Positions 9,319 through 25,026 of a stretch of DNA of 64,000 nucleotides are shown here, piece after piece. This stretch comes from Chloroflexota bacterium. Lineage in GTDB: Bacteria > Chloroflexota > Chloroflexia > QHBQ01. The notes under the pieces were generated by a model. It was given only the letters and a program-made list of their open reading frames with translations. It was not told the origin of the DNA and ran no database searches. Where the stretch lies: contig JAYUUN010000071.1 in the NCBI GenBank assembly GCA_043754535.1, positions 24,115-88,114 of the forward strand. Direction: 5' to 3'. Made by a program: the position numbers and the translations under genes. Numbering within the stretch: position 1 is the first letter of the stretch; every line of letters starts with the position of its first letter.

Positions 9319-11673
9319 TTAGCTGCGCGACTCTGGTTTGCCGCGCTTGCGGAGAGCAAACAGGTTACGCTGGCGATGGCTGGCAGTGCCGCCCCTAACG
9401 CTGCTAAGGACTACCGGCTCCAGCACCGCTGGTAGTTCGGCTTCGGCAGTGTTGGAGGTAGCAGCCAGCGTCTTGCGGTCGGGGTAGACGATGCGCGGGT
9501 GGTAGATGCCGCGCAGCATAGCCCGAAAGGCCCCTTCGATGCTGGCGATGTCACGGATGGTCAGGTCGCACTCGTCAAGCTGCCCCTCGGCCAGTCGCGC
9601 CCCGATCACCTTGTGGACGACCTGCCCCAACTGCTCCTCGTCGAAGTTGCTGCTGAACTGACCACTTTCGCCCTCGGCCCGACGGCTGAGTTGGCCGCTC
9701 TGCACAGCGGCGCGGGTGGCAGCCTCCACCGAGTCGGCTAGCATGACAATGGCCGCCTCCTTCGTCCGCGGGCGCGGGCCAGGGTACTGGTAGTCCGCCT
9801 TGTCCACCCGCCCTGCGCCCTCCTGCGCCACCGCCTTGTCATAGAAGAATCTGATAGCGGTAGTGCCATGATGCTGGGCCACGATGTCGCTCACCCGCTT
9901 GGGCAGGCGGTACTTCTTCGCCAACTCCACTCCATCGCGCACGTGGTCACTGATGATGTAGGCACTCTCGCGGGGTGGCAGGCTGTCATGGATGTTGTCC
10001 ATGCCGGTCTGGTTGTCTATGAAGTAGGCGGGATGCAGCACCTTGCCGATGTCATGATAGTAGGCACCAACGCGGGCCAGCAGCGGGTCGGCCCCCACCA
10101 CCTCGGCAGCACGCTCGGCCAGATTGCCCACGACCAGACTGTGGTGATAGGTGCCAGGCGCATCATACATCAGGCGGCGCAAGAGCGGCTGGGTGGGGTG
10201 GGCCAATTCGAGCAGTTGCAGGGGAGTGGTGGTACCAAATAGATTGCCCAGCAGGTTGAACGCGGCGAAGCTGAAGGCAGCAGAAAGAACACCGTTAAGC
10301 AAACTCACCCCCGCCAGTTCGAGCAGCGCGGTGTTATCATAGCTGTGGCTGAGGATGCGCGAGAGGATGATCACCAGGTAGTTGATCGCCGCCACCGCCA
10401 GCCCCGCCCGCACGAAGTCGCTGCTACGCTCAGCCCGCCACGCTGCGTAGATACCAACCATGCCGCTGACCAGATAGAAGACGGTTAGCTCAAAGTTGTT
10501 GTTGCCTAGCAGGCCCACCAGCAGGCTGATGATGATCGTGTAGACTATGCCTACATCGGTGTTGAGCAGCACGGCTAGCAGGATGCTGAAGCTGGCGAAG
10601 GGCAGCAGGTACGGCAACAGCACATGATCGGTGATGAAGTGTGCGCTGCCAATCGGGATCAGCAGGCACATGGCGATCAGCAGCAGTGGGCGGCGGCGTT
10701 GCCACATCTGGTGGTGGCTGAGGAACAGGTAGCTGCTGGCAACCAGTAGCAGCACAGTGACCAGCCCGACGGTGCCGATCACATCCTCCCAGTCTATCGC
10801 CCGCGCCGTCAGGCCGATCCGTTCGAGCGTCTCCACGTGCTGGGCGGTGACGATCTCTCCCTTGCTGACCACGATCTGGTTCTTCTGCACCTCCACCGTA
10901 ACAGCAGGGACGGCTGCCTCTGCCTTGTCGCGCAGAGCATTGCTGGCCGTCTCATTGACCAGGACGTTGGGCTTGAGGTAGGCACCGACGAGAGCTTGCT
11001 CGGCCAACCGCTGCTGCTCGTCGAGGCTGCGGTCACTGAGAGCAAGGATAGTAGAGCGGGCATCGTCCACCGCCCGTGCATCCACTATCCGCCGCCCATT
11101 CATCAGCACGTCGAAGGTACGAAGGGTGTCACTGACTGTCTCCTGCCACTGAGTCTCGCTGAGACTGATGATCACCTGCGCCTCGCCACGCTGGACGCTG
11201 AAGCCAGGCAAAGTGACAAGGCTGCTGAGTTTGTCGGCGGCACTGAGCAGGCGACCACGCACAGCAGTGATCGAGCGGATAGTCGCTTGCAGGTCTGCGC
11301 TCTGCCCAGCGATCAGGCTGGCGTTGTAGTCGTAGACGAGGTTGGTTGGGTCGTTACGAGCCGCCTGCTTGGCCGCCTGGGTCTGCACACTGCTAACATA
11401 GCGGACGTAGCGTGGGGCGTAGATCGTCTGCCCAGCGGGTTGACCGAGGACGGTGTTGGTAACGAGGCCGGTGGGCAGGTACTGGAACAGGAGGATCAGG
11501 CTGACCAACACAGCCATGATCAGGTTGAAGCCAACGAAGGTAAGCCAGCCCGACCAGTCGCGGTTGCCGCTGAAGCTGCTCTCGGCAGATGGGAGGGGCA
11601 AGCTGCCGCTCGTCAGCTTATCAGGGCGGGGGGGTCGGGTTGGCTCCAGGCTACCATTCCGCGGTTCGGGCAT
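9319..11673 (-). CDS. 7TM-receptor HD-domain phosphohydrolase (PgpH/YqfF-like, candidate cyclic-di-AMP phosphodiesterase)
   Basis: Large N-terminal extracytoplasmic domain after one TM, then about 7 TM helices. The C-terminal HD domain reads HHSLVVGNLAERAAEVVGADPLLARVGAYYHDIGK...ADSVEAA. The ATG at 11673 is preferred over the GTG at 11685. Confidence 0.8.
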   Translation of the reverse strand: MPEPRNGSLEPTRPPRPDKLTSGSLPLPSAESSFSGNRDWSGWLTFVGFNLIMAVLVSLILLFQYLPTGLVTNTVLGQPAGQTIYAPRYVRYVSSVQTQAAKQAARNDPTNLVYDYNASLIAGQSADLQATIRSITAVRGRLLSAADKLSSLVTLPGFSVQRGEAQVIISLSETQWQETVSDTLRTFDVLMNGRRIVDARAVDDARSTILALSDRSLDEQQRLAEQALVGAYLKPNVLVNETASNALRDKAEAAVPAVTVEVQKNQIVVSKGEIVTAQHVETLERIGLTARAIDWEDVIGTVGLVTVLLLVASSYLFLSHHQMWQRRRPLLLIAMCLLIPIGSAHFITDHVLLPYLLPFASFSILLAVLLNTDVGIVYTIIISLLVGLLGNNNFELTVFYLVSGMVGIYAAWRAERSSDFVRAGLAVAAINYLVIILSRILSHSYDNTALLELAGVSLLNGVLSAAFSFAAFNLLGNLFGTTTPLQLLELAHPTQPLLRRLMYDAPGTYHHSLVVGNLAERAAEVVGADPLLARVGAYYHDIGKVLHPAYFIDNQTGMDNIHDSLPPRESAYIISDHVRDGVELAKKYRLPKRVSDIVAQHHGTTAIRFFYDKAVAQEGAGRVDKADYQYPGPRPRTKEAAIVMLADSVEAATRAAVQSGQLSRRAEGESGQFSSNFDEEQLGQVVHKVIGARLAEGQLDECDLTIRDIASIEGAFRAMLRGIYHPRIVYPDRKTLAATSNTAEAELPAVLEPVVLSSVRGGTASHRQRNLFALRKRGKPESRS

Positions 11674-11765
11674 CGAGTCACCCACTTCTATAGAGTTATG
11701 ATACAGGCTGGGGCTGCTGGTTGAGGGGCTTATTTGCTGGGCTACTATTCACCATCTACCATCTG

Positions 11766-12410
11766 CTACAAGCTAGCAAGAAGGTCCTTGACCATTTGGC
11801 TAGCGGCCCGTCCATCAGCGCGGTCTTTGATGCGTGGTTGCAACGCACCCATCACCTTGCCCATCTCACGGGGGCCAGTCGCTCCCACTTCGGCAATCAC
11901 TTGGTGAACCAGAGCGCGCAACTCCTGTTCACTGAAGGGCTGCTCTGGCAGGTAGGCCAGCAGCACTGCCAGTTCTGCGCGCTCGGCAGCGGCCAGTTCG
12001 GGGCGGTTCGCCTTGTCATAAGCCTCAATCGAGTCGCGACGCTGCTTGATCTGCCTGCGGATCACGTCGGTGATTTCTGCATCGCTCAGGCTAGGTGGGT
12101 CAGCGATGATCGCCTCCCGCTCTGCTGTGCGGCGGATACCAAGCTCCTCCTTGATTGCGGCCAATTCATCATCACTGGCGTTTTGCACCCTGCTCTTGAA
12201 GGCGACCAGCTCCGCCCCTTGCAACCCAGCCAGGTGCTGCTGCAAGTCGTGCTGCTCGGCAGCGAAGATCGTCTGCATCTGCTTCTGGCGGCTCTCAAGC
12301 TCGGTGTTCTTGACGGCGGCCTGCAACATACGGATCGTATCACGGCGCACCTCATCCTTAGCGCGCATTGCAGCGGCCAAATCCTGCTTCAGTTGTTCGC
12401 GGATCGCCAT
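11766..12410 (-). CDS. GatB/YqeY-domain protein with a roughly 60-aa internal insertion
   Basis: MAIREQLKQDLAAAMRAKDEVRRDTIRMLQAAVKN...EMGKVMGALQPRIKDRADGRAASQMVKDLL matches YqeY at both ends. The ATG at 12410 has a GGGAGG Shine-Dalgarno, so the 31 upstream track codons were dropped. Confidence 0.8.
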   Translation of the reverse strand: MAIREQLKQDLAAAMRAKDEVRRDTIRMLQAAVKNTELESRQKQMQTIFAAEQHDLQQHLAGLQGAELVAFKSRVQNASDDELAAIKEELGIRRTAEREAIIADPPSLSDAEITDVIRRQIKQRRDSIEAYDKANRPELAAAERAELAVLLAYLPEQPFSEQELRALVHQVIAEVGATGPREMGKVMGALQPRIKDRADGRAASQMVKDLLASL

Positions 12411-12531
12411 TTCGGGCCTGCCTCCCATCCGATCTTCACCTATTCTAACTGCGATTATACAGGTAGGGCCAGGGGCTGTCAAGCAGGGCGGCGGCACGAA
12501 CATTGCTGCCGTAGATCGGGCGTGACCGTCC

Positions 12532-12561
12532 TTGACGGCAATGCTGATCGTGTGCTACAAT
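12532..12561 (+). promoter_or_regulatory. Putative promoter P1 TTGACG-18-TACAAT upstream of the respiratory cluster
   Basis: cTTGACGgcaatgctgatcgtgtgcTACAATcgg. Confidence 0.5.
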
Positions 12562-12625
12562 CGGCCTCGTTGGCAGGCGTAAGAGCAGCACCTGTGGGCT
12601 TGCGCCCAAAGGCTGGATTAACCTT

Positions 12626-12646
12626 ACATTAAAGCCACGTTAATGT
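12626..12646. promoter_or_regulatory. Perfect 7-N7-7 palindrome ACATTAA-N7-TTAATGT in an AT-rich patch between P1 and P2
   Basis: acattaaagccacgttaatgt, flanked by the imperfect outer inverted repeat aacctt...aaggtt. It could be an operator or an RNA hairpin. Confidence 0.4.
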
Positions 12647-12967: not shown

Positions 12968-13720
12968 ATGGCTAATAGCCGAAAAGGATTGGGCCGGTTC
13001 AGCCCAGGCAGTCTGTATGAGGGGTTTACGCGCTCGCAGATTTATCGCTCTGTGATCCGCAACCCCTGGCCGAACAACGCCCGTACTCGCGCCCTGGCGG
13101 TGATGAACAGCGTCTTCCTGCACCTGCAACCGACGCGCACCCGCCCGGAGGCGATCAAGATCACCTACACCTGGGGTCTCGGTGGCATCTCGTTCCTATT
13201 CTTTTTGCTGCTGACGATCACTGGCGTGATGTTGATGTTCTACTACGTGCCGACGGTGCCAGATGCTTACAACTATATGAAGGAGCTTCAGGGTACGGTC
13301 AGCTTCGGCCAGTTGATGCGGAACGTCCATCGCTGGTCGGCGCATGGTATGGTGATCACTGTCTTCCTCCATATGTGCCGTGTCTTCTACACTGGCAGCT
13401 ATCGCCCACCCCGTGAGTTCAACTGGGTGGTTGGCGTAGTGCTACTATTCTGCACTTTCTTCCTTAGCTACACCGGCTATCTACTGCCCTGGGATCAGTT
13501 GAGCTTCTGGGCGGTAACGGTTGGCGCGAACATGGCAGGGGCTACCCCCTACCTCGGCGAACTGGTCAGCCTGCTCCTGCTCGGCGACAAGTCGGTGGGT
13601 CAGGCAACCCTGGTGCGCTTTTACACCCTGCACGTGATCGCCATGCCGTTGCTCACTGCGCTGTTTCTCAGCGTCCACTTCTGGCGCATCCGCAAGGATG
13701 GCTTCTCTCGCGGCCTCTAG
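12968..13720 (+). CDS. Cytochrome b6-type subunit of a Rieske/cytochrome b complex (four-helix N-terminal half of cytochrome b)
   Basis: 250 aa. Helix B carries [15 protein letters not shown]. Helix D carries [16 protein letters not shown], a b6-type His spacing. Also contains [19 protein letters not shown]. Confidence 0.9.
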
Positions 13721-13771: not shown

Positions 13772-14578
13772 ATGGCTGCAACAAAGCCACAAGGGGCAAC
13801 CCCCAGCCGCCGCGAGATGATCGACCGGCTGGCAGAGCAACGTGGGCAGGCACAGGTTAGTGTTTCGCGCAGGCGAGCCAACACCGTGCAGGTTTGGCCG
13901 CACTTGATGATCCGCCAGTTCATCGCCACCGTGGTGATTACCCTCAACACACTGTTGCTGGGCGTGCTGATCAATGCGCCACTGGTTGAGATTGCCAACC
14001 CGGAGAAGACCCCGAACCCGTCGAAGGCTCCCTGGTACTTCCTCAACCTGCAAGAGTTGCTGCTGCACATGAACCCCGCCCTCGCTGGGGTGATCATCCC
14101 CAGCGTTGCGCTTGGTGCTTTGGCAGCGATCCCTTACATCGACAACAAGCCAGAGGGGACTGGGGTCTGGTTCTACTCGAACAAAGGCATCCCCGTCCTC
14201 ATCTTCAGCTTCCTTTACACCCTGATCGCTGAGATCGCCCTGGTGCTGATCGATGCGGCCCTACCCGCCAAGCAGTGGATTGGCGGCCTGATAAGGGGAG
14301 TATTCGGTGTGCCAAAGGATGATAGCGCGGCTTCCTTCCAGGGCCAACTGCTAGAAGCTCTCTCTGGCTGGTTCTTCCCCATCGGCGTGATCGTGATGCT
14401 CGCCCTCGTCCTCGGCTTCCTGGTACGCTTGATTTGGAAGGCGAACAAGAGCGAGATCGTAATTGCCATGTTCACTGGCTTTGTTGCCAGCTACGTCCTG
14501 CTGACGATCATTGGTACTGCCTTCCGCGGCCACTCGATGTCCTTGCTTTGGCCCTGGGCATTGGGCGAAACCAGCTAG
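13772..14578 (+). CDS. Subunit-IV-like protein (C-terminal half of cytochrome b), extended with extra TM helices
   Basis: 268 aa. PEKTPNPSKAPWYFLNLQELLLH is the PEWY-equivalent Qo-site motif (here APWY) of the cytochrome b C-terminal domain/PetD. More TM helices are present than in the 3-TM PetD. Confidence 0.85.
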   Translation: MAATKPQGATPSRREMIDRLAEQRGQAQVSVSRRRANTVQVWPHLMIRQFIATVVITLNTLLLGVLINAPLVEIANPEKTPNPSKAPWYFLNLQELLLHMNPALAGVIIPSVALGALAAIPYIDNKPEGTGVWFYSNKGIPVLIFSFLYTLIAEIALVLIDAALPAKQWIGGLIRGVFGVPKDDSAASFQGQLLEALSGWFFPIGVIVMLALVLGFLVRLIWKANKSEIVIAMFTGFVASYVLLTIIGTAFRGHSMSLLWPWALGETS

Positions 14579-14646: not shown

Positions 14647-15249
14647 ATGAGTCGCATCATTAATCCCGATCTCGAACAAAGCAAGCAGATGGATCTCGGT
14701 TCGGTGACAGCCGAAGGGGATGTGACCCGCCGCAGCTTCTTCAAGTACATTTTCATGGGCGCGATGGCCGGGTTGGGCGCACTGGGTGCGGGCAGCTTCT
14801 TCAGCTTCTTTCTGCCACGCAAGACGCAGGCTTTTGGCAGCAAAGTGAAGGCGGGCAAGGTAGCCGACTTTCCAATCCAGACCAAAGCGGGTAGCACCAT
14901 CACCAGCGTGATCGGGGCAACCGCCCGCAACCGCGATGGCCGCTTCTACATGATACACCTGGAGGACGGCTTGATCGCCCTCTACTGGAAGTGCGTCCAC
15001 CTCGGCTGCACCGTCCCCTGGAACCCGCAAGAGGAGTTCACCTACGAGGGGGTCAAGTACGTGGGGATGTTCCACTGCCCCTGCCACGGCTCGACCTACA
15101 TCCCCGACGGCCAGATCGTTGCTGGCCCTGCCCCGCGCCCACTTGACTACATGGAGATCACCCTCGAGGGCGACAACGTGACGGTGGACACTGGTAAGAT
15201 TAAGCAGCGGATCAAGGCTGACCCCAAGACGCAGGCGACCAAAGTTTAG
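14647..15249 (+). CDS. Rieske [2Fe-2S] subunit with Tat signal
   Basis: Twin-arginine motif TRRSFFKY followed by a TM helix. Cluster boxes CVHLGC and CPCHGSTY. Confidence 0.92.
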   Translation: MSRIINPDLEQSKQMDLGSVTAEGDVTRRSFFKYIFMGAMAGLGALGAGSFFSFFLPRKTQAFGSKVKAGKVADFPIQTKAGSTITSVIGATARNRDGRFYMIHLEDGLIALYWKCVHLGCTVPWNPQEEFTYEGVKYVGMFHCPCHGSTYIPDGQIVAGPAPRPLDYMEITLEGDNVTVDTGKIKQRIKADPKTQATKV

Positions 15250-15303: not shown

Positions 15304-16218
15304 ATGAACGACAAAGGAATCCTGAGTATCGCCCTGACCCTGGCGTTGATCTTCGGCGCAATTGCCTACTTCGTCATCGACGGGCAGCGTGGTACGCAGA
15401 TCAGCAACGCACAATTGCAATCCTCGGCTCTGGCTGGACAGAAGCTGTTCGGCCAGTATTGCGCCCAGTGCCATGGCCCGCTCGGTGAGGGCTGCATCGG
15501 CCCAGCAGTGCAGCGCGGTGAGTGGAGAGCGAAGGAGGTGGGTGGTGATGCTACTGCTGACCTGGTCGCCGCTCATGACTACATCAACAAGACGCTGCAC
15601 CAGGGGCGGCAGGGTATCCAGCCCAACCCCCAGGTTCCTAATATGCCAGCGTGGGGTCAAGAGAATGGCGGCTCACTCAACACTGAGCAGATCAACAACC
15701 TGACCGACTACCTGCAATATGGCGACTTTAGCAATACCCTCTACTACGTTCCCTCGGCAAACCTGGCAGGCGACATCCCGAATGCTCCTGGCGACCCCGC
15801 TGGCCGCAACAAGGGGATGAAGGAGATGCTGCTTGGCTATGGCTGCCTCAACTGCCACCTGGTCGGCAATGTCGGTGGGCAGGTAGCTGCCAACCTGAGC
15901 GCGGTTGGCGGGCGGCGCACCCAAAACTGGCTGACTGCCTGGATTTACAATCCCCAGGAGATGCCAGCCTGGAATCGTGGCCCCTACACCTGGGTTTTCA
16001 GTGCTACCCAGACCATGCGCCTCTACAACACTACCCCAATGCCGACCCTGCCTGCTTACACCCAGACTGTGGTTATGGGTCAGCCCGCTGTCGCTATCGT
16101 AGACAAGGCAGCGCACATGAACCCTAGCTATATGCCGAAGATCGAGTTCCAGGATCGCGACAACAATGGCATTAACGACCTGTTCGACATCGCGGGCTAC
16201 CTATCGCGCCTGCGCTAA
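15304..16218 (+). CDS. Membrane-anchored diheme c-type cytochrome
   Basis: N-terminal TM helix (ILSIALTLALIFGAIAYFVI). Two CxxCH sites (CAQCHG, CLNCHL), each followed by a distal Met region (NMPAWG, MPAWNRG). Confidence 0.85.
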   Translation: MNDKGILSIALTLALIFGAIAYFVIDGQRGTQISNAQLQSSALAGQKLFGQYCAQCHGPLGEGCIGPAVQRGEWRAKEVGGDATADLVAAHDYINKTLHQGRQGIQPNPQVPNMPAWGQENGGSLNTEQINNLTDYLQYGDFSNTLYYVPSANLAGDIPNAPGDPAGRNKGMKEMLLGYGCLNCHLVGNVGGQVAANLSAVGGRRTQNWLTAWIYNPQEMPAWNRGPYTWVFSATQTMRLYNTTPMPTLPAYTQTVVMGQPAVAIVDKAAHMNPSYMPKIEFQDRDNNGINDLFDIAGYLSRLR

Positions 16219-16305: not shown

Positions 16306-17328
16306 GTGATGATCAACTTCCGTAAGCACAAGTTTACTGCTCCAAGCCTGCTGGTGGCTGGATTGGCGGTGCTGGCTCTACTGCTTAGCAGTGCCAACCT
16401 CAGCCTGGTCAATTCGGCAACCATCACCATCGAGCCAAGTATCCTCGGCAGCAACGAAAAGCTGCCAGTTAACGACCCCGACGCTGCAATATGGACGCAG
16501 GCGGGTGGCAAGGACGTGGCTGCTATCGTGGTGCCGATGAGTGCGCAGCAGATGGTGCGGCCCAGTGGTGGCAGCACGAAGGCCGTAGTCGTCCGAGCCG
16601 TCGCGAGCAGCGAACAACTGGCGATCAAGATTAGCTGGCACGACGACACGATGAACAACCAGGAGGACGGCTACCAGGCTAGCGATGCAGTGGCGGTGCA
16701 GTGGCCGATGAAGGTCGGTGAAGCCCTTCCCTTCCAGTGCATGGGTCAGCTTGATGCGCCAGTAAACATTTGGCAGTGGAAAGCTAGCCTCCAGACGACC
16801 AACGAGACCACTGGCAACGGCCAGCCCCCTGTCTACAACTTGATGAGCAATGGTATTTGCAAGGCTGCCGATGCAGCAGGCATGATCCCCCAGGGTCATG
16901 GTGTGTGGGGCAAGTTCAAGGATGAGACTGGCGCAGAGCAGACGGGTTGGAGCGTTGTCTTCAGCCGCAAGTTCAGCACGGGCGACGCTAATTCTGCCGC
17001 TATCGAACCAGGCCACAGCACCAACGTCGCCTTCGCAGTCTGGAACGGCGCACCAGGGGTGTTCGAGCAGAAAAGCCGCAAGGCAGTAGCTAGCTGGGTG
17101 CAGTTCAACGTGGTGGCTGGGACGAAGGTTGACCTGACCTGGCTTAACCTGATCCTGATCCTCGGCGCAAGCGTGGTACTGATCGGCCTCGCCTTGAAGC
17201 TGACCCCGCGCACGATCAGCGCACAAGCGGTAGTGGCTAGTCCCCAAGTTGACACAGAGGGAAGGCCCGCCGCTGATACCCCGGCCAACCGCGCCCTCAA
17301 GTTGACAGCGAGATCGCGGCGGATGTAG
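16306..17328 (+). CDS. Secreted, C-terminally TM-anchored protein resembling the EB_dh / cytochrome c-552-DMSO-reductase-like (DOMON-type) heme-b-binding domain
   Basis: 340 aa with a signal peptide. The motif order ...LAIKISWHDDT...DAVAVQWP...FQCMGQ...VNIWQWKAS...VAFAVWNGA...QKSRKAVASW... matches my recollection of the EB_dh family. A C-terminal TM helix (LNLILILGASVVLIGLALKL) follows. No CxxCH site is present. Confidence 0.45.
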   Translation: MMINFRKHKFTAPSLLVAGLAVLALLLSSANLSLVNSATITIEPSILGSNEKLPVNDPDAAIWTQAGGKDVAAIVVPMSAQQMVRPSGGSTKAVVVRAVASSEQLAIKISWHDDTMNNQEDGYQASDAVAVQWPMKVGEALPFQCMGQLDAPVNIWQWKASLQTTNETTGNGQPPVYNLMSNGICKAADAAGMIPQGHGVWGKFKDETGAEQTGWSVVFSRKFSTGDANSAAIEPGHSTNVAFAVWNGAPGVFEQKSRKAVASWVQFNVVAGTKVDLTWLNLILILGASVVLIGLALKLTPRTISAQAVVASPQVDTEGRPAADTPANRALKLTARSRRM

Positions 17329-17433
17329 AGTAGAGGGCAGAGTAATGGGCTTTAGCAGTTAACCGGGGGCGTGATAGTACGTCCCCACAAATGGGCGAGA
17401 TCGGGTAAAAGCGGAAGGTGAGGGGAGAGGTTA

Positions 17434-18870
17434 ATGGACAAAGAGTACAGTGCAGCCCGAAACTTTGTAGTAACCGGGGCATTCTGGGTGATCATCGGCG
17501 GCCTGGTGGGGCTGGTCGCCGCCACGGAGATGGTCAGCCCCGACTTCCTCGGTGGCATCCCCTTCTTCGTCTTTGGTCGCCTGCGCCCGCTGCACGTCAA
17601 CGTGATGTTCTTCCTCTGGGTCAGCAGTATCTACTTTGGGGCGTTCCTCTACATTGTGCCAAAACTCTGCGGCACCAAGCTATACAGCGAGAAGCTGGGC
17701 AATGTTGCAATGGTGCTGTGGAACTTCGTCGGCATCTTCGCCCTCTTTACCCTGCTTACCGGCTACACCCAGGGCCGCGAGTATGCTGAACTGATCTGGC
17801 CGATTGACATTCTGGTAGAAGTCGTCCTGCTGATGAACCTCTATAATATTGTGCGTACCATCCTCGCTCGCAAAGAGAAGAAGCTGTTCGTCTCCCTCTG
17901 GTACATCACAGGTGCTATGCTCTGGCTGCCAATCGTCTACGCCATCGGCAACGTGATCTGGGATCCGTTCACCAGTTGGATCAGTACTGGCACCTTCAAC
18001 GGCAATCTGCTGCTCGGCTTCCCCGGCGGCAGCCTTGACGGCATTCGCGACTCGATCTGGAACTGGTACTACGGCCACAACGTTCTTGGCCTCTGGTTCA
18101 CCCCTGGTGGCGTTGCTATGGTCTACTACTTCCTGCCAGTGATCATCCGCTCTCCACTCTACAGCCACACCCTCAGCTTGATCGGCTTCTGGGGGCTAGC
18201 CTTCTTCTACACGATGGTCGGCCACCACCACATCTTGCAAACACCTACCCCCGGCTACCTGAAGACAATTGCCACGCTCGGTAGCATCGGTCTGTTCGTG
18301 CCAGTCTTCACCTTCCTCGGCAACATCTGGATGACGATGCGTGGAAGCTGGGGTAAGATATACGAGAGCATCCCCCTCAAGTTCCTGATCGTCGGCACGG
18401 TCTGGTACTTCGTCACCTGCGTGCAGGGGCCATTCCAGGCGATCCAGGGCTTCAACCGCTTGATCCACTTCACCAACTGGATCGTAGGCCACGCCCACCT
18501 CGCTATGCTGGGGACGATGAGTAGTTGGGCGATGGGGGCGGTGCTATACATGGTGCCAGTAATCAGCCGTAAACGGCTCTGGTCACCCGCTTTGGCCGAA
18601 GCGCAGTTCTGGCTAGTGACGATGGGCTTCATCCTGATGATGATCACCTTGCAGGTCGGTGGCCTCGTGCAGGGTGGTATGTGGATGGCAGGCCAGACGG
18701 TCTACGCAGGCGTGCCACAAATGCGCCCCTACTACATTGGGCGGGCAATCAGCGGTATCCTGCTCTTTGCAGGCTTCTCCCTCCAATTTTACAACATCTA
18801 CAAGACGATTCGTTCCAGCGAACCGATCCGCGCCAGCAGCGCAATCTCGGCGGCTGATGTACCAGCTTAG
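17434..18870 (+). CDS. ccoN: C-family (cbb3-type) heme-copper oxidase catalytic subunit CcoN
   Basis: 478 aa, 12 or more TM helices. Helix II carries RPLHVNVMFF. Also WYYGHNVLGLWF (CuB His), FFYTMVGHHHI (Tyr plus HH pair) and NWIVGHAHLAMLG (heme b3/b His pair). Confidence 0.9.
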   Translation: MDKEYSAARNFVVTGAFWVIIGGLVGLVAATEMVSPDFLGGIPFFVFGRLRPLHVNVMFFLWVSSIYFGAFLYIVPKLCGTKLYSEKLGNVAMVLWNFVGIFALFTLLTGYTQGREYAELIWPIDILVEVVLLMNLYNIVRTILARKEKKLFVSLWYITGAMLWLPIVYAIGNVIWDPFTSWISTGTFNGNLLLGFPGGSLDGIRDSIWNWYYGHNVLGLWFTPGGVAMVYYFLPVIIRSPLYSHTLSLIGFWGLAFFYTMVGHHHILQTPTPGYLKTIATLGSIGLFVPVFTFLGNIWMTMRGSWGKIYESIPLKFLIVGTVWYFVTCVQGPFQAIQGFNRLIHFTNWIVGHAHLAMLGTMSSWAMGAVLYMVPVISRKRLWSPALAEAQFWLVTMGFILMMITLQVGGLVQGGMWMAGQTVYAGVPQMRPYYIGRAISGILLFAGFSLQFYNIYKTIRSSEPIRASSAISAADVPA

Positions 18871-19057: not shown

Positions 19058-20518
19058 ATGGCACAGATTACCGACAACATCAAGAAGGGCTTTCGCGAGG
19101 CGGCCACGGGACTGAAGGCGCGACGCTTTGTGCTGCGGATGGACTACCCCACCATCTTCTTTGGCGCACTGCTGATCGTCCTCAGCGTGACTGCGGTTGT
19201 GGTCGCCCTGCCCTTCTTTACCTACAAGGTCGAACCCTCGCCTGATGCCCGCCCGCTCAGTGTAGCGGAGGAGCATGGTCGGGCGATCTACGCTAGCAAC
19301 GGTTGCTGGTACTGCCACAGCCAGTATCTTCGCCCCCAGGACTGGACAGGGGTTAAGTCATTCGAGACCCTGGGCCGCGTGGCCCAAGCGGGTGACTTCG
19401 CTTACCAGAAGGGGATGCTGCTCGGCTCGGAGCGCACCGGCCCCGACCTGTCGCAGGAGGGTGGCGCGCACCCCGACGACTGGCACGTAGCCCACTTCTA
19501 CAACCCACGCTACACCAGCGTCAAGTCGATCATGCCAGAGTTTAGCTTCTGGAGCGATGAGGAACGCAACGACACGATCAGCTACGTGCAGAGCCTGGGC
19601 GGCAAGCCAGGGGTAGCCCGTTCGCAGAAGCAGCGCGAAGTCAAGTCAGCCACCCTACAAACACGTGGCTTGCCCAGTGACGACCCGAAAGACCCGTTCA
19701 AGAACCGTCGCTTGCAGGTACAGGCTATGTTCGATGACAGTTGGGCTAACGTGACCAACCCGATCCCGACCAGCCCGCGCAGCTTGCAGCATGGCAAATA
19801 CGTCTTCCAGACCAATTGCATCGGCTGCCATGGGGTCTACGCCGACGGCAAGGGGCCAGCAGCTCGCTATGTTCAGCCGCAGCCCTTCAACTTCACCCAG
19901 GCTAACCAGCAGGCGTGGCTCTCCGACGGCCAGATGTACCTCGCGCTGCTCTACGGCGTAGAAGGCACCTCCATGCCAGCCTGGGGCGACTTCCTTACCG
20001 TCAATGATATTTGGGACACGGTCAACTTCCTGCGTACTGTCCCTTATGGCAGCCTGACCGCTGGACGCGAGCCGACGATTGAGATGTTCCAGCGGAGCGA
20101 AGAACTGGTGCGCGCCAACCCACAAGACCCCTCCAAGAACCCCTACCGCACCCAGTTCAACATCGTAAACAAGGGCAGCTACTACAACCCACAGAATATC
20201 GGGCCGAAGTTCAACCCATCTGGCCCCAGCACTGGCGTAGAAGACCCCAGCACTGGCGGTCAGCAGCAGCGTCCCGACGTGGGTAACTACCCAATCCAAA
20301 ACTCGATCTACCCACCACCCTATCAGGTTGGCACCAGCGGGGTTGTCACCCCGGTCTCCTCCTCAGTTGGCAATGGTTCAACTGGCCCCGCAGACAACGG
20401 TGGTTCAATGCCGCCTAGCAGCGGTGGCAACAACGGCAACGGTGGAGCAGGCAGCACTGGCACTGGCGGCACCAGCGGAGGCAGCGGCACTGGCAGCACT
20501 AGCGGCGGCAGCAAGTAG
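19058..20518 (+). CDS. ccoO: Fusion of CcoO (monoheme cbb3 subunit II) with a CcoP-like monoheme cytochrome c domain and a Gly/Ser/Asn-rich tail
   Basis: TM anchor. CcoO motifs IYASNGCWYCHSQYLRP, LLGSERTGPDLSQEG, DDWHVAHFYNPR..SIMPEF. A second heme site CIGCHGVYADGKGP...GTSMPAWGD follows. The last roughly 90 aa are low complexity (GGNNGNGGAGSTGTGGTSGGSGTGSTSGGSK). Confidence 0.85.
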   Translation: MAQITDNIKKGFREAATGLKARRFVLRMDYPTIFFGALLIVLSVTAVVVALPFFTYKVEPSPDARPLSVAEEHGRAIYASNGCWYCHSQYLRPQDWTGVKSFETLGRVAQAGDFAYQKGMLLGSERTGPDLSQEGGAHPDDWHVAHFYNPRYTSVKSIMPEFSFWSDEERNDTISYVQSLGGKPGVARSQKQREVKSATLQTRGLPSDDPKDPFKNRRLQVQAMFDDSWANVTNPIPTSPRSLQHGKYVFQTNCIGCHGVYADGKGPAARYVQPQPFNFTQANQQAWLSDGQMYLALLYGVEGTSMPAWGDFLTVNDIWDTVNFLRTVPYGSLTAGREPTIEMFQRSEELVRANPQDPSKNPYRTQFNIVNKGSYYNPQNIGPKFNPSGPSTGVEDPSTGGQQQRPDVGNYPIQNSIYPPPYQVGTSGVVTPVSSSVGNGSTGPADNGGSMPPSSGGNNGNGGAGSTGTGGTSGGSGTGSTSGGSK

Positions 20519-20593: not shown

Positions 20594-20869
20594 GTGATGA
20601 AACGAATGAGGCGCACTACTCTTGCGCTGGCAAGCAGCCTGCTTATAGCGGCAATGGCTAGCCCCGCCTACGCCCACGACGCAGTAGCGGGTGAGGAGTT
20701 GTCGGGGGCAATGGAGATGCTCTACTTCACCCTCTTTCTGGTTGCCAGCACTGCCTTTGTCATCTTCTACGCCTGGCGTAAGGGGCAGTTCAGCAACTTT
20801 GAGGAGAGCAAGTACCGGATGCTTGAGCAGGACGGTGAAGAATACAAAGAGTTGATGGGAGAATACTGA
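20594..20869 (+). CDS. ccoS: CcoS/FixS-like cbb3 maturation protein with an N-terminal signal-peptide-like extension
   Basis: MEMLYFTLFLVASTAFVIFYAWRKGQFSNFEESKYRMLEQD resembles the CcoS consensus (...FlWA.ksGQfdD......iL.dD). The upstream 39 codons read like a Sec signal (MKRMRRTTLALASSLLIAAMASPAYA/HD). An alternative start at the ATG at 20711 (Shine-Dalgarno GGTGAGGAG) would give a canonical 52-aa CcoS. Confidence 0.6.
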   Translation: MMKRMRRTTLALASSLLIAAMASPAYAHDAVAGEELSGAMEMLYFTLFLVASTAFVIFYAWRKGQFSNFEESKYRMLEQDGEEYKELMGEY

Positions 20870-21192
20870 TGGACCCAAACGAGACTATCAACCGCACTGG
20901 TGGCAATCTTCCCTGGGATAACATTCTCCCCTGGGAGTGGCAGTGGCACCTGGACGCTATCGAGTGGATATGGGGCATTGCAATCGCCGTGCTGATTTGG
21001 TTCACCATTTCGGCGATGAAGTACCGCAAGCAGGCAGCCAACCAGCTTGGCCGCAATGTGGAGGACTTCGCAGGCCAGACCACTGAGGCGAACGGCAAGA
21101 TGCCAGTCTTCCTGATGCTCACCTACGCTGCTGTCACTCTTTTCTTCTTCACCTACACCCTGATCTACTTCTTCTTCGGCTACACGTATTAG
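20869..21192 (+). CDS. Two-TM small membrane protein; second helix resembles the FixP_N / CcoQ-type anchor of cbb3 oxidases
   Basis: 107 aa. Its start overlaps the upstream stop (TGATG). ...ANGKMPVFLMLTYAAVTLFFFTYTLIYFFFGY resembles the DN.LP.WW...fy.ti.fa..Y pattern. Confidence 0.4.
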   Translation: MDPNETINRTGGNLPWDNILPWEWQWHLDAIEWIWGIAIAVLIWFTISAMKYRKQAANQLGRNVEDFAGQTTEANGKMPVFLMLTYAAVTLFFFTYTLIYFFFGYTY

Positions 21193-21223
21193 GCGTGTCA
21201 GCCCCCAAGAGAGGCTACTGTAA

Positions 21224-21652
21224 ATGATGAGCGAACCAACCCCGCGCCAACAAAACCGCTTGCAGGATGTAAAGTCCGAGCGCAACGCTGCTGCCTTTGG
21301 TGAGGAGAACTCTGCCGAGCCGCTCTATGGCCTTGCTCCAATCGAGGGTGGCGCAGACGAGACGGTGGAGGAGAGTTCAGCGGAGACCCCAAATAGCCCT
21401 GACTTCCTGGAGGCACGCACGCGCACCGAGGCAGCAGCGGGTGGTAGTGCTGGCGGGGGGATCGGCGGCAAGTCTCAGGCTGCGCTCCCGGCTGGTGGTC
21501 ATGGGCATGGTACTGGCAGCTTCAACCTGCTAACTGTGATCCTGATGAGCATGGCGGGGCTGATCATCACCGTCGGCATCGTCCTCTATATCGCGCACGG
21601 CGGCCACGACCAGGTGCAAGACATCCTTAGCCGTTACCCCGCCAACCGCTAA
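21224..21652 (+). CDS. Hypothetical C-terminally anchored membrane protein with acidic disordered N-terminus and a GGHGHG motif
   Basis: 142 aa with a single TM helix (FNLLTVILMSMAGLIITVGIVLYIA). Co-directional with the cbb3 genes. Confidence 0.45.
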   Translation: MMSEPTPRQQNRLQDVKSERNAAAFGEENSAEPLYGLAPIEGGADETVEESSAETPNSPDFLEARTRTEAAAGGSAGGGIGGKSQAALPAGGHGHGTGSFNLLTVILMSMAGLIITVGIVLYIAHGGHDQVQDILSRYPANR

Positions 21653-21719
21653 CCCCGCCTGGGTGCAAGACGCACCCCCACCACCCGGCCCGTTAGGGGC
21701 GGAGAGGGTATGACAAACA

Positions 21720-22034
21720 ATGGCCTTTGTGCGTATGACCACCTTCATCGTCCCTGCGGCCCGCAGTGAGGAGATTCAGCCGGGCCACAACCTCTACCTG
21801 GCGGCCACGCAGGGGGTTAAGATTGTGGCTCAGAACACCAGTGGCTTCCATCGGGGGGGTGTCTGGGCTAGCCAGACCGAGAAGGGTGACATCAAGGTAG
21901 TAATCTATATGCAGTTCTACGACCTGCCCGATTTGCAGAACTTCGCCAATGCACCGATGGTGCGCGACTTCGAGGCGAGCGTTGACGAAATCCTCAGCCC
22001 GCCCCTGATTGAGGTTTTCGAGGTCGTCTCCTGA
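21720..22034 (+). CDS. Small ABM/Dabb-like (ferredoxin-fold) protein
   Basis: 104 aa. Its size and alternating beta-alpha pattern (VRMTTFIV...IKVVIYMQFYDLPDLQNFANAP...) are consistent with the antibiotic-biosynthesis-monooxygenase fold. The call is weak. Confidence 0.4.
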   Translation: MAFVRMTTFIVPAARSEEIQPGHNLYLAATQGVKIVAQNTSGFHRGGVWASQTEKGDIKVVIYMQFYDLPDLQNFANAPMVRDFEASVDEILSPPLIEVFEVVS

Positions 22035-22063
22035 CCCTGCTGTTTCAACCTGGAAAGCTACCT

Positions 22064-22699
22064 ATGTTGCAAGAAAAAGAGGACGCGCAGCAGAACCTCA
22101 CGCCCCAGCAGCCGGAACCCAAGTACGGCGAACTGCCTCCGATCATGCGCCGCCTGCGCCCGCTGATCTACCTGCTGATCGTCCTCGGCACCATAGCAAT
22201 TAGTACAATCAGCGTCTATCAACTCTACTTCCTGCGTACTGCTGGCGATTCCTCATCAGCAATGGCGGTAGGCAGCGATAGCGCAAACCGCAACGTCCCC
22301 GACCGACGCGGGATGTTCATCACCACCGGTAAGGGCTTCTACCAGATTCTTGACCTGACCAGTGATGTGGTCAACCAGTTCCAGAACCAGGTACCAGCCG
22401 ACGCTGCTCGCTTCCTGCTGGGTGACGCAACCTGGGTCACGGTCAACGGTTCCATGGACTTCGAGGCAGGAGAAGCGCACGTCTACTTGCTCAAGCCAGA
22501 AAGCAACGGGCAGCAGGCGATCTCGCTCCAGTTCGAGAAGGTGCAGCGCAAGAGCGACAAAGCGGTGCGCTTCATGGCAGCTAGCGGTGCCTGGGCCGAG
22601 GGTGCTTACCGCGTAGAGGTGCCAGCCGACTCCATGTATGGCGGCAAAGCCTACGCCTACTTTATCGTTGGTTATCCCGACCTCAACCTGGGCAAGTAG
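22064..22699 (+). CDS. Hypothetical N-terminally anchored extracytoplasmic protein
   Basis: 211 aa. One TM helix (LIYLLIVLGTIAISTISVYQLYF), then a beta-rich soluble domain. I recognise no motifs. Confidence 0.45.
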   Translation: MLQEKEDAQQNLTPQQPEPKYGELPPIMRRLRPLIYLLIVLGTIAISTISVYQLYFLRTAGDSSSAMAVGSDSANRNVPDRRGMFITTGKGFYQILDLTSDVVNQFQNQVPADAARFLLGDATWVTVNGSMDFEAGEAHVYLLKPESNGQQAISLQFEKVQRKSDKAVRFMAASGAWAEGAYRVEVPADSMYGGKAYAYFIVGYPDLNLGK

Positions 22700-22830: not shown

Positions 22831-25026
22831 ATGGAGAACAATTTGAAGGCGGTGGCAGTGCCAGCGATGGCAGTGAAGGCCGACCCACTGGTTAAGTCGC
22901 TACTGAGTGAGGGGCAAGTGGCCGAGGAGATGAAGGGGCAGGAGCGCGGGTACCTGCGCTTCTTCTTCGCGGCGGCGGTTGCACTGCTGTTCAGTGCAAC
23001 CCAGGGCATCCTGATGCGTGTGCCAGGCTTCTTTGACTGGATTCGCCATGCCGACTACGGTGGTCGAATGGTCTCGATCCTCTCCTTCACCCACATCACA
23101 GTGGTGGCGGCTGGCACGATCAGCATGACTGCCCTGATTTACTACGTGCTGCCCCGCGTGATGGGCCGCCCGCTCTTTGGCCGCGGCATCAGCAACCTGG
23201 GGTTCTGGTGTATCCTCTTTGGCGTGTACGGCTTCTACTTCAGCATGATCGGCATGGGGCTGTGGGAAGGGAGCCTGGTAGTCTCACAGGGCTACACCTA
23301 CGATGCTGCTCGCCAGATGCTAGACGGCTGGCACCGGGGACTGGTTGGTGCCTGCGCCAGCTTCATGGGTATTGGCTACTGGATCATGGTACTCAATGTC
23401 CTCGTCACCTACTTTCAGGGGCGCAAGCAGCGACGGTTGCGCCAGCAGCTTGCCCTCGCCAGTGGGCTAGACTCACCAGAGCTTGACCAGGTCATCACGA
23501 CTGCTGCGCCACTCAAGCAGCGGCTGCTCAACTTGATCGGCTGGAACGAGGTGGGCAAGGCCAACGACTACTACATCGCCAAGTTCTTTGCGGTCGCTGC
23601 TATTGGCTTGTTCATCGGCACCGTGCAGGGGGTCTACCAGGTGTTGCCCTGGTCTACCGAGTGGCTACGCAAGGCTGGTACCGCTGGGCAGCAGATCGAC
23701 CCCACCGCCCACGCCCACATCAACCTGGTCAGCGTTGCGCTAGCGGTGATGGGCTTCAGCTACTACTTCCTGCCACGCATCTTCAATCGGCCCATCGCCA
23801 GCGTCAAGCTCGCCAATTTCAGCTTCCGGGCGGCCAGCTTTGGCATGATTAGCTTCTGGCTCTGGCTGGTTGTTTTCGGCTTCATCGAAGGCGACAAGGT
23901 GGTGCGCTTCGGCTGGACTCCTGACGCAGCCCGTGCCAATGACACGATCTGGCGCAACATTGCGATCATCGGCTCAGCCTGCTTCATGGCAGCAGGCTTC
24001 TGGACCTACATCTCCAACATCTACCTGACGCTCAACAACAAGCGGCGGCTGACCGAGGATCAGCAGGCGACCATGCAGCCCGCCAGCAGCTTCCCGATCA
24101 AGGCACCCTGGCTGGCTAGCGTCGTAGGCATCTCCGCCACCTTCCTGCTGTTCGGCACCATCCAGGGCATCATCCAGGCTCTACCCTACACTCAAAAGTG
24201 GTTGCAGACTTCGGGCGACGCTGGCTACTTCGTCACCCCCTTCGCCCACGCCCAGCTAAACACCACTGGCGGGGTAGTCCTCAGCCTGATGGTCTTCATA
24301 ATGTTCCTCGCCCCGCGCCTCAGTGGCCGCCCACTCAACACTGGGCTGGCGAAAGTGGCGGTGGCCGTCCTCTGCCTCGGCATCGTCAGCGTCTATGCCG
24401 TCAATCTCCTACTTGGCGTAGCAGAGGGTGATTTGATGCGCCAGGGCAGCAGCTTTGAACAGGCGCGCCAGTTGTGGCTCGGCCCCACCCTTAACGACAC
24501 GCTGCTGCTCACCTCGACCACGATCCAGGGCGTAGGCTACCTGCTATTCTTTGTGGTGATCATGCAGGCGATTGGCTGGCTGGCAATCCGCAACTACTTC
24601 GGCCAGCGGTTCGGCGGGCTGGGCCGTGCTGTGCTAGATGGAGCGAAGGTTCACCCCCGCGCCTTGCCCAAGAGCATGGCCGCTGCCCGTAGCCGCGCCC
24701 TGACCGGCACTATGCTAGAAGTAGTACCTGGCATGGGCTGGCTGATGACTGGGCGGCCCAAGCTAGCGACCTTCTTGCTCCTGTTCGGCTTTGGGGTGCT
24801 GCTCTCCACCGTCTTCGCGGTGCTGGCGATCTTCAACATCACCGAGGAGAACTACGTGATCTGGTGGCTGGTCGGCATCTACACCGCAGTCGCGCTGCTC
24901 TCTGCCTTCTTCCAGTATCGCAGCTACATGGCCCAGGCGCGGGCGCACCTCAGCAGCCTGTCCGCCCCCACTCGCGCGCTCGCCCAGGGGGTTGCTGAGC
25001 AAATTGCTACCCGCAAACAACTGTAG
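22831..25026 (+). CDS. 14-TM membrane protein made of three tandem 4-helix modules, each resembling helices I-IV of heme-copper oxidase subunit I, plus 2 C-terminal helices; function unknown
   Basis: 731 aa. The three modules cover aa ~40-197, ~246-402 and ~425-590. They share the motif order ...QG(I/V)..., H-x-(N/T) helix, (F/V)L(A)PR(V/I/L)xxRP(L/I), ...EG(S/D)..., (D/E)(A/Q)AR. This parallels RPLHVNVMFF...YIVPKLCGTKLYSEKLGN in the neighbouring CcoN. No CuB HH pair is present. Confidence 0.6.
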   Translation: MENNLKAVAVPAMAVKADPLVKSLLSEGQVAEEMKGQERGYLRFFFAAAVALLFSATQGILMRVPGFFDWIRHADYGGRMVSILSFTHITVVAAGTISMTALIYYVLPRVMGRPLFGRGISNLGFWCILFGVYGFYFSMIGMGLWEGSLVVSQGYTYDAARQMLDGWHRGLVGACASFMGIGYWIMVLNVLVTYFQGRKQRRLRQQLALASGLDSPELDQVITTAAPLKQRLLNLIGWNEVGKANDYYIAKFFAVAAIGLFIGTVQGVYQVLPWSTEWLRKAGTAGQQIDPTAHAHINLVSVALAVMGFSYYFLPRIFNRPIASVKLANFSFRAASFGMISFWLWLVVFGFIEGDKVVRFGWTPDAARANDTIWRNIAIIGSACFMAAGFWTYISNIYLTLNNKRRLTEDQQATMQPASSFPIKAPWLASVVGISATFLLFGTIQGIIQALPYTQKWLQTSGDAGYFVTPFAHAQLNTTGGVVLSLMVFIMFLAPRLSGRPLNTGLAKVAVAVLCLGIVSVYAVNLLLGVAEGDLMRQGSSFEQARQLWLGPTLNDTLLLTSTTIQGVGYLLFFVVIMQAIGWLAIRNYFGQRFGGLGRAVLDGAKVHPRALPKSMAAARSRALTGTMLEVVPGMGWLMTGRPKLATFLLLFGFGVLLSTVFAVLAIFNITEENYVIWWLVGIYTAVALLSAFFQYRSYMAQARAHLSSLSAPTRALAQGVAEQIATRKQL

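Follow-up and report, generated by a model that had tools for sequence, protein, structure and literature searches.

Complexes built around a Rieske protein and a cytochrome b are among the most conserved of energy-converting enzymes, and on the outer (P) side of the membrane electrons nearly always leave them through a c-type cytochrome. Another carrier, a heme-b protein of Pfam family EB_dh, is known as the gamma subunit of type II dimethyl sulfoxide (DMSO) reductase family molybdoenzymes, described members being EbdC (2IVF_C), NxrC of anammox bacteria (7B04_C), SerC, DdhC and ClrC. The heme b of EbdC has Met/Lys ligation and a potential of +256 mV, that of DdhC a potential of +324 mV (PMC8840923), and Kuenenia NXR-ABC displays UV-Vis features of a high-potential b-type haem (PMC8387239). 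Here we describe an EB_dh gene set within a Rieske/cytochrome b operon of an uncultured member of the Chloroflexia. It occupies positions 16306 to 17328 (+ strand) of a 64,000-nucleotide (nt) stretch of contig JAYUUN010000071.1 (assembly GCA_043754535.1), hereafter termed the window, and lies just upstream of genes for a cbb3-type oxidase. On balance we think it probable that its product is a mono-heme b protein with the EbdC/NxrC fold that serves as a fixed P-side relay subunit of a b6-type Rieske/cytochrome b complex.

Other systems invite comparison with this locus. CbsA (cytochrome b558/566) is an outward-facing, membrane-anchored mono-heme b protein of an archaeal Rieske/cytochrome b-type system. 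Complex III-IV assemblies (the obligate actinobacterial QcrCAB-aa3, with a diheme cytochrome c, and bc1-cbb3 of the 6XKW/8SMR type) resemble the window locus in having adjacent bc and oxidase genes and anchored carriers; to our knowledge none of them contains an EB_dh/DOMON heme-b subunit. In Sulfolobales, FoxC is predicted to be EbdC-like (PMC10654088), and a SoxNL-CbsAB complex is named in PMC4122944. The haloarchaeal system termed pNar combines NarB (Rieske) and NarC (cytochrome b) with Orf7, a mono-heme-b protein that faces the periplasm, the three together being proposed to supply NarGH with electrons (PMC7754194; PMC4683180), and the Rieske/cytochrome b complexes of the anammox bacterium Kuenenia (Kuste4569-4574 and Kustd1480-1485) include an oxidoreductase subunit for nicotinamide adenine dinucleotide or its phosphate, NAD(P) (PMC12954380). 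Full-text literature searches did not turn up an EB_dh protein described as part of a bacterial bc or bc-cbb3 operon, and a paper on cytochrome bc evolution (PMC5600118) makes no mention of Chloroflexi, cbb3, DMSO, heme b-binding or diheme. A conserved EB_dh gene of a bc operon beside a cbb3 oxidase thus appears to be undescribed, with partial precedents in NarBC-Orf7, FoxC and CbsA. An earlier note on this DNA, made from the sequence alone, was not aware of a description of this role for the domain; the searches agree with this for an EB_dh protein in a bc operon, but as a concept the role has forerunners in pNar Orf7 and FoxC.

The protein and its principal features are as follows (all on the + strand).

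16306..17328, +: EB_dh-type putative heme-b protein (Pfam EB_dh, PDB sequence matches, AlphaFold2/Foldseek)
16333..16389, +: N-terminal hydrophobic segment (aa 10-28), probable Sec signal peptide or anchor (hydropathy, AlphaFold2)
16741..16743, +: codon of Met146, predicted axial heme-b ligand (alignment to 2ivf_C position 108; codon checked)
17080..17082, +: codon of Lys259, predicted second axial heme-b ligand (alignment to 2ivf_C position 201; codon checked)
17140..17196, +: C-terminal transmembrane anchor (aa 279-297; hydropathy 2.43; AlphaFold2 helix aa 276-298)
17197..17325, +: predicted cytoplasmic tail of ~43 amino acids (aa) with a basic end (alignment; AlphaFold2 helix aa 325-338)

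The open reading frame (ORF) begins with GTG, ends with a stop codon within its coordinates and encodes 340 aa; a near-identical database copy (P0001) starts one codon further on, at ATG 16309 (339 aa), which is likely the true start. Residues are numbered here from GTG 16306. Pfam EB_dh (PF09459) matches aa 70-251 with E=1.1e-22 and 81.6 bits (cutoff 33.3). The NCBIfam model TIGR03477 (DMSO reductase family type II enzyme, heme b subunit) matches with E=8e-34 and 116.7 bits, a score under its curated cutoff of 169.85, which marks the protein as a divergent member of the family. Its sole solved relatives by sequence in the PDB are anammox NxrC (7b04_C, 1.3e-12) and EbdC (2ivf_C, 1.6e-10). An AlphaFold2 model built from an alignment of 24 sequences is of modest confidence, with a mean predicted local distance difference test (pLDDT) score of 67 and values below 50 in the ligand-bearing loops. 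Searched with Foldseek, it returned the same two chains at the top, 7b04_C (3e-8) and 2ivf_C (6e-8; template-modelling score 0.61 with EbdC as the normalising target); CBM9 modules and the cytochrome domain of cellobiose dehydrogenase came next, a neighbourhood that would be expected for the DOMON superfamily. The EbdC-like beta-sandwich is thus recovered, at moderate model confidence. Membership in the EB_dh/DOMON superfamily, which the earlier note had proposed from six sequence blocks, is fully supported by profile, fold and ligands; all six blocks are present in the translation, and across 24 homologues the majority of their positions vary little or not at all.

In HMMER alignments M146 (in FQCMGQ) and K259 (in QKSRK) fall opposite positions 108 and 201 of the EbdC chain 2ivf_C, which we take to be the heme ligands of the EbdC structure paper. 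Both residues, put forward as candidates in the earlier note, never vary among the 24 homologues aligned (33-72% identity to the window protein) or among 86 relatives drawn from the bc-linked, molybdenum (Mo)-linked and Nitrospira-type groups. The motifs QCMGQ, VNIWQWK and AFAVWNG are likewise invariant, together with both ligands, across sequences 35-55% identical overall. One element distinguishes the bc-linked clade: G[FW][GS]TL, kept in Mo-linked and NxrC-type proteins, is replaced there by NGICKA or PGIGYL. Two cysteines lie near these elements. Cys145 (16738-16740) directly precedes the Met ligand and recurs in most family members, including the Nitrospira NxrC-type proteins, while its equivalent is absent from EbdC and Kuenenia NxrC; Cys185 (16858-16860, within NGICKA) is restricted to the bc+cbb3 clade and is missing at loci L020 and L029. 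From the sequence, a disulfide or a heme contact is possible for them.

Hydropathy (2.14 over aa 10-28) and an AlphaFold2 helix (aa 11-37) define the N-terminal hydrophobic segment, which is followed by a small-residue motif conserved in homologues (NVPLASSAAN) and is probably a Sec signal peptide or an N-terminal anchor. Basic residues follow the C-terminal transmembrane helix, and together these signals would place a heme domain of ~250 aa on the outer face of the membrane. The signal peptide and C-terminal anchor of the earlier note thus stand as to the anchor, while the N-terminal segment may be either signal peptide or anchor. A probable export signal is common to the window protein and the type II gamma subunits. 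The C-terminal helix occurs throughout the bc-linked clade and in the Mo-linked gamma subunits of Chloroflexota and Actinomycetota, and not in Nitrospira NxrC-type proteins. The tail beyond the helix (…GRPxADTPAxRA…ARSRR) is conserved only in the subclade of the window protein (P0001-P0006); other bc-linked proteins end a few residues past the helix.

The EB_dh gene is the fifth of a same-strand row with intergenic gaps of 51-187 nt. Pfam and NCBIfam searches place it, as the earlier note had described, between a bc-complex cytochrome c and ccoN, among these genes.

12968..13720, +: cytochrome b6-type subunit (N-terminal four-helix cytochrome b; Pfam Cytochrome_B, E=1.7e-49)
13772..14578, +: subunit IV/PetD-like protein (Pfam Cytochrom_B_C, E=7.5e-6; five hydrophobic segments; Qo-type APWY at aa 86)
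14647..15249, +: Rieske 2Fe-2S protein (Pfam Rieske; matches to b6f-type Rieske NCBIfam models under cutoff)
15304..16218, +: membrane-anchored diheme cytochrome c (Pfam Cytochrome_CBB3 and Cytochrom_C; N-terminal transmembrane segment; CxxCH at aa 53 and 181)
17434..18870, +: CcoN-type subunit I of a C-family (cbb3-type) heme-copper oxygen reductase (Pfam COX1, E=8e-84)
19058..20518, +: CcoO (FixO) fused to a mono-heme cytochrome c domain (Pfam FixO, E=1e-32, and Cytochrom_C)

This arrangement is widely conserved. A species-representative metagenome-assembled genome (MAG) of the host, an uncultured member of the Chloroflexia, carries the same genes at 95-99% identity (loci L015 and L016), and the window sequence also occurs in sediment, glacier and freshwater metagenomes. 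Among the database proteins P0001-P0030, which are 35-72% identical to the window protein, gene order is the same on every contig of sufficient length. A scan that took a single genome for each species, with operon proteins mapped by tblastn, retrieved 80 loci; the order cytochrome b, subunit IV, Rieske, diheme cytochrome c, EB_dh, CcoN, CcoO-cytochrome c was found in ~21 species-representative MAGs of Chloroflexia/Chloroflexota, and it recurs in many independent metagenome contigs, with EB_dh identities of 35-57% across loci. Six further MAG loci (L036, L038, L040, L044, L045 and L053), whose EB_dh proteins are 31-38% identical to the window protein, and at least two metagenome contigs (L120 and L129) keep the order from cytochrome b through EB_dh without CcoN/CcoO. 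Directly upstream of cytochrome b, the three MAG loci inspected and both contigs encode a GltD-like protein of ~615 aa for flavin adenine dinucleotide (FAD) and NAD(P), with two 4Fe-4S motifs (L036, L038, L044, L120 and L129); it was located in the MAGs as follows.

L036, 4031-5881: GltD-like FAD/NAD(P) protein
L038, 4083-5933: GltD-like FAD/NAD(P) protein
L044, 4487-6331: GltD-like FAD/NAD(P) protein

At these three loci EB_dh is succeeded by a small ORF and next by a long one, which encodes a GAF histidine kinase in L036 and L044.

The association was also approached from the side of the bc complex, by scanning metagenome contigs with aligned diheme cytochrome c subunits. EB_dh is the next gene after the diheme cytochrome c in 17 of 17 metagenome loci of this bc subfamily that have enough downstream sequence, two of them of the GltD type; three apparent exceptions end 590-780 nt past the diheme cytochrome c gene, short of the ~700-nt spacing of their subgroup. 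(At one locus of a syntenic subgroup, L019, a 163-aa ORF without a Pfam match occupies 9379-9870 in the ~700-nt space between diheme cytochrome c and EB_dh.) A sister bc group, with cytochrome b 58-59% identical, has no EB_dh despite long flanks. The oxidase-less loci and this uniform result together indicate that EB_dh is fixed in one lineage of bc complexes independently of the oxidase, its co-occurrence and order with cytochrome b, subunit IV, Rieske protein and cytochrome c being conserved irrespective of other modules. The genes that accompany gamma subunits elsewhere are missing: at none of ~45 bc-linked loci, with up to 10 kb examined on each side, was a Mo alpha subunit, an iron-sulfur (FeS) beta subunit or the chaperone NarJ encoded, and tblastn with alpha, beta and NarJ queries found no match in the 64-kb window. 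We therefore reject a Mo enzyme hidden in the window, and the earlier note was right that no molybdoenzyme partner lies nearby. Among the 80 genome loci retrieved, no MAG held both a bc-linked and a Mo-linked copy.

Relatives of the window protein fall into groups that parallel this division. At ~35% identity or more (31-38% for the oxidase-less type) they belong to bc operons; those at ~34% or less, which come from Dehalococcoidia, Anaerolineae, Acidimicrobiia, Nitrospira and Nitrospinales, either neighbour Mo-alpha, FeS-beta and NarJ genes or are of the NxrC-like kind known from Nitrospira. This pattern supports the recruitment away from a molybdoenzyme that the earlier note had suggested. 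In a neighbour-joining tree all bc-linked copies form one clade beside the Mo-linked gamma subunits. A search of 1.8 billion cluster representatives gave ~1,800 EB_dh-type proteins; of the best 150, no more than a handful of 50% clusters seem to be bc-linked, on the basis of score and a few sequences read. Fusions tying a bc-type domain to a partner were also sought, and those among the best representative hits were tandem EB_dh proteins or cytochrome c-EB_dh fusions of the Mo-linked kind.

We propose that the protein descends from gamma subunits of periplasmic Nar/Nxr-type molybdoenzymes of the type II DMSO reductase family, and that in one lineage of uncultured Chloroflexia the Mo partner would have been lost while EB_dh became the fixed fifth gene of a Rieske/cytochrome b complex. 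Two metagenome contigs illustrate a possible starting point. L173 (1-5044) reads Rieske, cytochrome b, subunit IV, multiheme cytochrome c and the start of a Mo alpha subunit with a twin-arginine (Tat) signal, and L158 (1-9761) reads the same kind of multiheme cytochrome c, then Mo-alpha, FeS-beta, EB_dh and NarJ; together they form a bacterial analogue of the haloarchaeal NarBC-NarGH-Orf7 cluster. Their layout could be ancestral, and loss of alpha, beta and chaperone genes from a cluster of this kind would leave a gamma subunit with a bc complex. Caldilinea aerophila (Chloroflexi) was reported by Lücker et al. to have NxrB-like, chaperone and NxrC genes and no NxrA (PMC3578206), so partial clusters do occur in the phylum. 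A short Chloroflexota contig (L042, 1-5500) holds a C-terminal fragment of cytochrome b and a cytochrome c-like stretch, then just the final 154 aa of a Mo-alpha, followed by FeS-beta, NarJ and EB_dh. It is possibly chimeric, being either a decayed cluster or an assembly chimera, and we do not rely on it as an evolutionary intermediate.

In the mechanism we favour, Met146 and Lys259 would axially ligate one heme b in a domain exported to the P face and held there by the C-terminal helix, where it would likely act as a high-potential one-electron relay. Electrons would pass from quinol to the Rieske protein and the diheme cytochrome c, with the EB_dh heme in series or on a side branch, and then to CcoO-cytochrome c and CcoN, the acceptor in the window being the CcoO-cytochrome c subunit of the adjacent cbb3-type oxidase. 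That all the carriers are membrane-anchored suggests a complex III-IV assembly, probably one of only membrane-anchored carriers. This electron-transfer role is deduced from synteny and conserved ligands. The earlier note had offered a shuttle or extra subunit between complex III and the oxidase; an extra subunit of complex III fits better, since EB_dh is kept with bc genes at loci lacking CcoN/CcoO, and a shuttle between complexes III and IV fits worse.

Several observations weigh against this proposal. A shared operon is no proof that the protein is a stoichiometric subunit. From Rieske to CcoN, a complete c-type wire is already formed by the diheme cytochrome c and the CcoO-cytochrome c fusion, so that the main path has no obvious need of a heme-b relay, which may be a branch rather than the trunk. 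The sub-cutoff TIGR03477 score and the low model confidence around the ligands also count here, as does the tree, a rough one without support values. The sequencing runs listed as holding the region are DNA metagenome runs only, with no RNA run among them. Finally, nxrC-like genes of Nitrospira are unlinked to nxrAB as well (loci L046-L094), so missing linkage alone does not exclude a distant Mo partner.

The alternatives grow out of the redundancy with the c-type wire. In one of them the protein is an orphan gamma subunit of a Nar/Nxr-type Mo enzyme encoded elsewhere and docks that enzyme onto the bc-cbb3 assembly, passing nitrite-derived electrons to the oxidase or, as proposed for pNar, quinol electrons by way of the bc complex to nitrate. 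In its favour, the protein is a clear NxrC/EbdC homologue with intact ligands; several nxrC-like genes lie away from nxrAB in Nitrospira and Nitrospina (PMC3578206), bc genes stand directly upstream of a Mo-alpha/beta/EB_dh/NarJ cluster in the bacterial contigs L173 and L158, and a haloarchaeal model joins NarB/NarC, Orf7 and NarGH (PMC7754194). We nevertheless regard it as unlikely, given the absence of Mo genes from all ~45 bc-linked loci and from the window, the lack of any MAG with both kinds of copy, and the replacement of G[FW][GS]TL by NGICKA or PGIGYL in the bc-linked clade, the contact of that motif with the beta subunit being hypothetical. A non-redox remnant, a structural or assembly protein without heme, would accommodate the low TIGR03477 score and the poorly modelled heme pocket, but the axial ligands and the motifs QCMGQ, VNIWQWK and AFAVWNG would hardly have stayed invariant across sequences 35-55% identical, and we consider it highly improbable.

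Two further alternatives concern the partner of the heme domain. As a subunit of the cbb3 oxidase, the protein would replace CcoP or CcoQ, a reading favoured by its place directly upstream of ccoN and by the lack of a separate ccoP gene; yet eight loci keep EB_dh with the bc genes without CcoN/CcoO, the CcoO fusion already supplies an extra c-type heme domain, Pfam and NCBIfam profiles detect no similarity to CcoP or CcoQ, and a promoter-like site, weak evidence in a region where such sites are not above chance in number, falls between the EB_dh coding end and ccoN. This makes an oxidase subunit quite improbable. DOMON-type heme domains are commonly outward-facing electron relays, and the protein might instead be an entry or exit port to redox partners other than the oxidase. 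A high-potential lithotrophic donor could feed cbb3 downhill and drive reverse flow through the bc complex; in the oxidase-less operons with an NAD(P)-oxidoreductase subunit, the heme might accept electrons on the high-potential branch while quinol oxidation drives the reduction of NAD(P)+, a scheme put forward for the anammox Rieske/cytochrome b complexes. The Foldseek match to the cellobiose dehydrogenase cytochrome domain is compatible with such a port, as are the place of FoxC in an iron-oxidation cluster of Sulfolobales (PMC10654088) and the 615-aa GltD-like protein that begins the oxidase-less operons, as discussed for the Kuenenia complexes (PMC12954380). We hold the idea doubtful: the operon has no conserved neighbour that would encode a donor or acceptor, the window operon has no NAD(P)-oxidoreductase gene, and the reading is purely contextual. 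A relay subunit of the Rieske/cytochrome b complex remains our preferred interpretation.

Set against the described systems, the relay-subunit interpretation has both parallels and departures. The window protein shares its fold and Met/Lys ligand positions with EbdC and NxrC, but differs from the type II gamma subunits in lying inside a Rieske/cytochrome b operon, in having no Mo partner near ~45 loci, in its score below the TIGR03477 cutoff and in NGICKA replacing G[FW][GS]TL. Like pNar, compared here by description only, the locus encodes a Rieske/cytochrome b module together with a P-side mono-heme-b protein; Orf7, however, serves a co-encoded nitrate reductase, whereas no reductase genes are found at the window locus and a cbb3 oxidase or nothing follows. 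In its presumed function the window protein comes nearest to such outward-facing heme-b partners of archaeal Rieske/cytochrome b or oxidase systems. CbsA and FoxC, likened by function and from descriptions, similarly present an outward-facing mono-heme b instead of or beside c-type cytochromes, but they belong to archaeal, acidophilic systems, and the window complex also keeps a diheme cytochrome c; no link of CbsA to the DOMON/EB_dh fold was found in the literature searched. The oxidase-less sister operons resemble the anammox complexes in having a GltD-like FAD/Fe-S protein beside cytochrome b (L036, L038, L044, L120 and L129). The APWY of the window subunit IV is a second likeness, the APWY clade of cytochrome b including Chloroflexi, Planctomycetes and Nitrospirales (PMC4122944). 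The anammox complexes differ in having P-side multiheme c or HAO-like subunits rather than EB_dh, and the window operon in lacking an NAD(P) oxidoreductase.

Details of the neighbouring products are consistent with their family assignments. The cytochrome b6-type protein scores 293.6 bits with NCBIfam cytb_ExtP (cutoff 290) and is 62-82% identical in syntenic loci. The Rieske protein has a twin-arginine motif, RRSFF, at aa 28 and the cluster boxes CVHLGC (aa 116) and CPCHGS (aa 144). The diheme cytochrome c has weak matches to actinobacterial QcrC, and all of 17 orthologues keep its two CxxCH motifs and two MP(A/T) methionines. The CcoN-type protein is closest to solved cbb3 enzymes, aligning end to end with them (9g6b_A, 2e-73; 3mk7_A, 7e-71), and scores 300.6 bits with NCBIfam ccoN, under the cutoff of 583. 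In the 9g6b_A alignment it keeps the conserved His and Tyr motif residues, which we take to correspond to P. stutzeri H60, H207, Y251, H257, H258, H345 and H347 and presumably include the CuB and heme ligands and the cross-linked Tyr. On the strength of these residues we assign it as an oxygen reductase; a nitric oxide reductase was rejected, as the CcoN motifs are kept and the NorB match is marginal (2.5e-8). The CcoO fusion has CxxCH at aa 83 and 254 and an N-terminal transmembrane anchor; its end (~20250-20518) encodes an extended Gly/Ser/Pro-rich tail of low complexity, which makes a tblastn self-alignment stop at aa 423. No separate ccoP gene was found among the operon genes with Pfam or NCBIfam.

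Some features of the surrounding sequence may be recorded. The promoter-like site, TTGACA-18 nt-TAGAGT (17302-17331, +), overlies the last EB_dh codons ~100 nt before ccoN and might allow separate transcription of the oxidase genes; the count of sites in the region being no higher than chance, we do not use it as evidence. A terminator scan found no convincing + strand terminator within the cluster. After ccoO, four small ORFs (20869-22699, +; 107, 142, 104 and 211 aa), three with transmembrane segments, have no Pfam or NCBIfam match; loci L001 and L004 show a similar run of small genes after ccoO, one gene having a weak FixS match. Downstream of the cbb3 genes lies a 731-aa ORF (22831-25026, +) with ~12 transmembrane segments and a weak COX1 match (56.8 bits, in three stretches), without an NCBIfam or PDB sequence match. 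A 655-aa gene with a COX1 match has the same relative position in L001 (16079-18046) and L004 (15995-17965), and the 731-aa product could be a very divergent heme-copper-oxidase-like protein. Upstream of cytochrome b, a TTG-start ORF of 303 aa (11721-12632, +) is unusual in its high content of Leu, Arg, His and Cys, has no Pfam or NCBIfam family match and overlaps an opposite-strand ORF of 245 aa; it probably does not represent a gene.

A more far-reaching view would make EB_dh, with a Met/Lys-ligated heme b derived from a nitrate/nitrite-oxidoreductase gamma subunit, the P-side port of a new type of complex III in aerobic Chloroflexia of soil, sediment and glacier: one version a fused bc-cbb3 assembly, the second an anammox-like NAD(P)-oxidoreductase complex in which EB_dh is the high-potential branch of a quinol-driven, bifurcating NAD(P)H production. 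We offer this speculatively and give it little weight; if it were true, the bifurcating mechanism would extend beyond anammox bacteria. Comparison of the two operon versions, with a cbb3 oxidase in one and an NAD(P) oxidoreductase in the other, offers a way of testing the role. As to annotation, the current database names of these proteins, "DMSO reductase family type II enzyme heme b subunit" or "ethylbenzene dehydrogenase-related", wrongly imply a molybdoenzyme pathway in these genomes. If the relay-subunit interpretation is correct, it would document a clear instance of modular exchange between two major respiratory enzyme families, give the little-understood heme-b partners of archaea (CbsA, FoxC and Orf7) a counterpart in bacteria, and offer a handle on the use of high-potential heme b outside molybdoenzymes.

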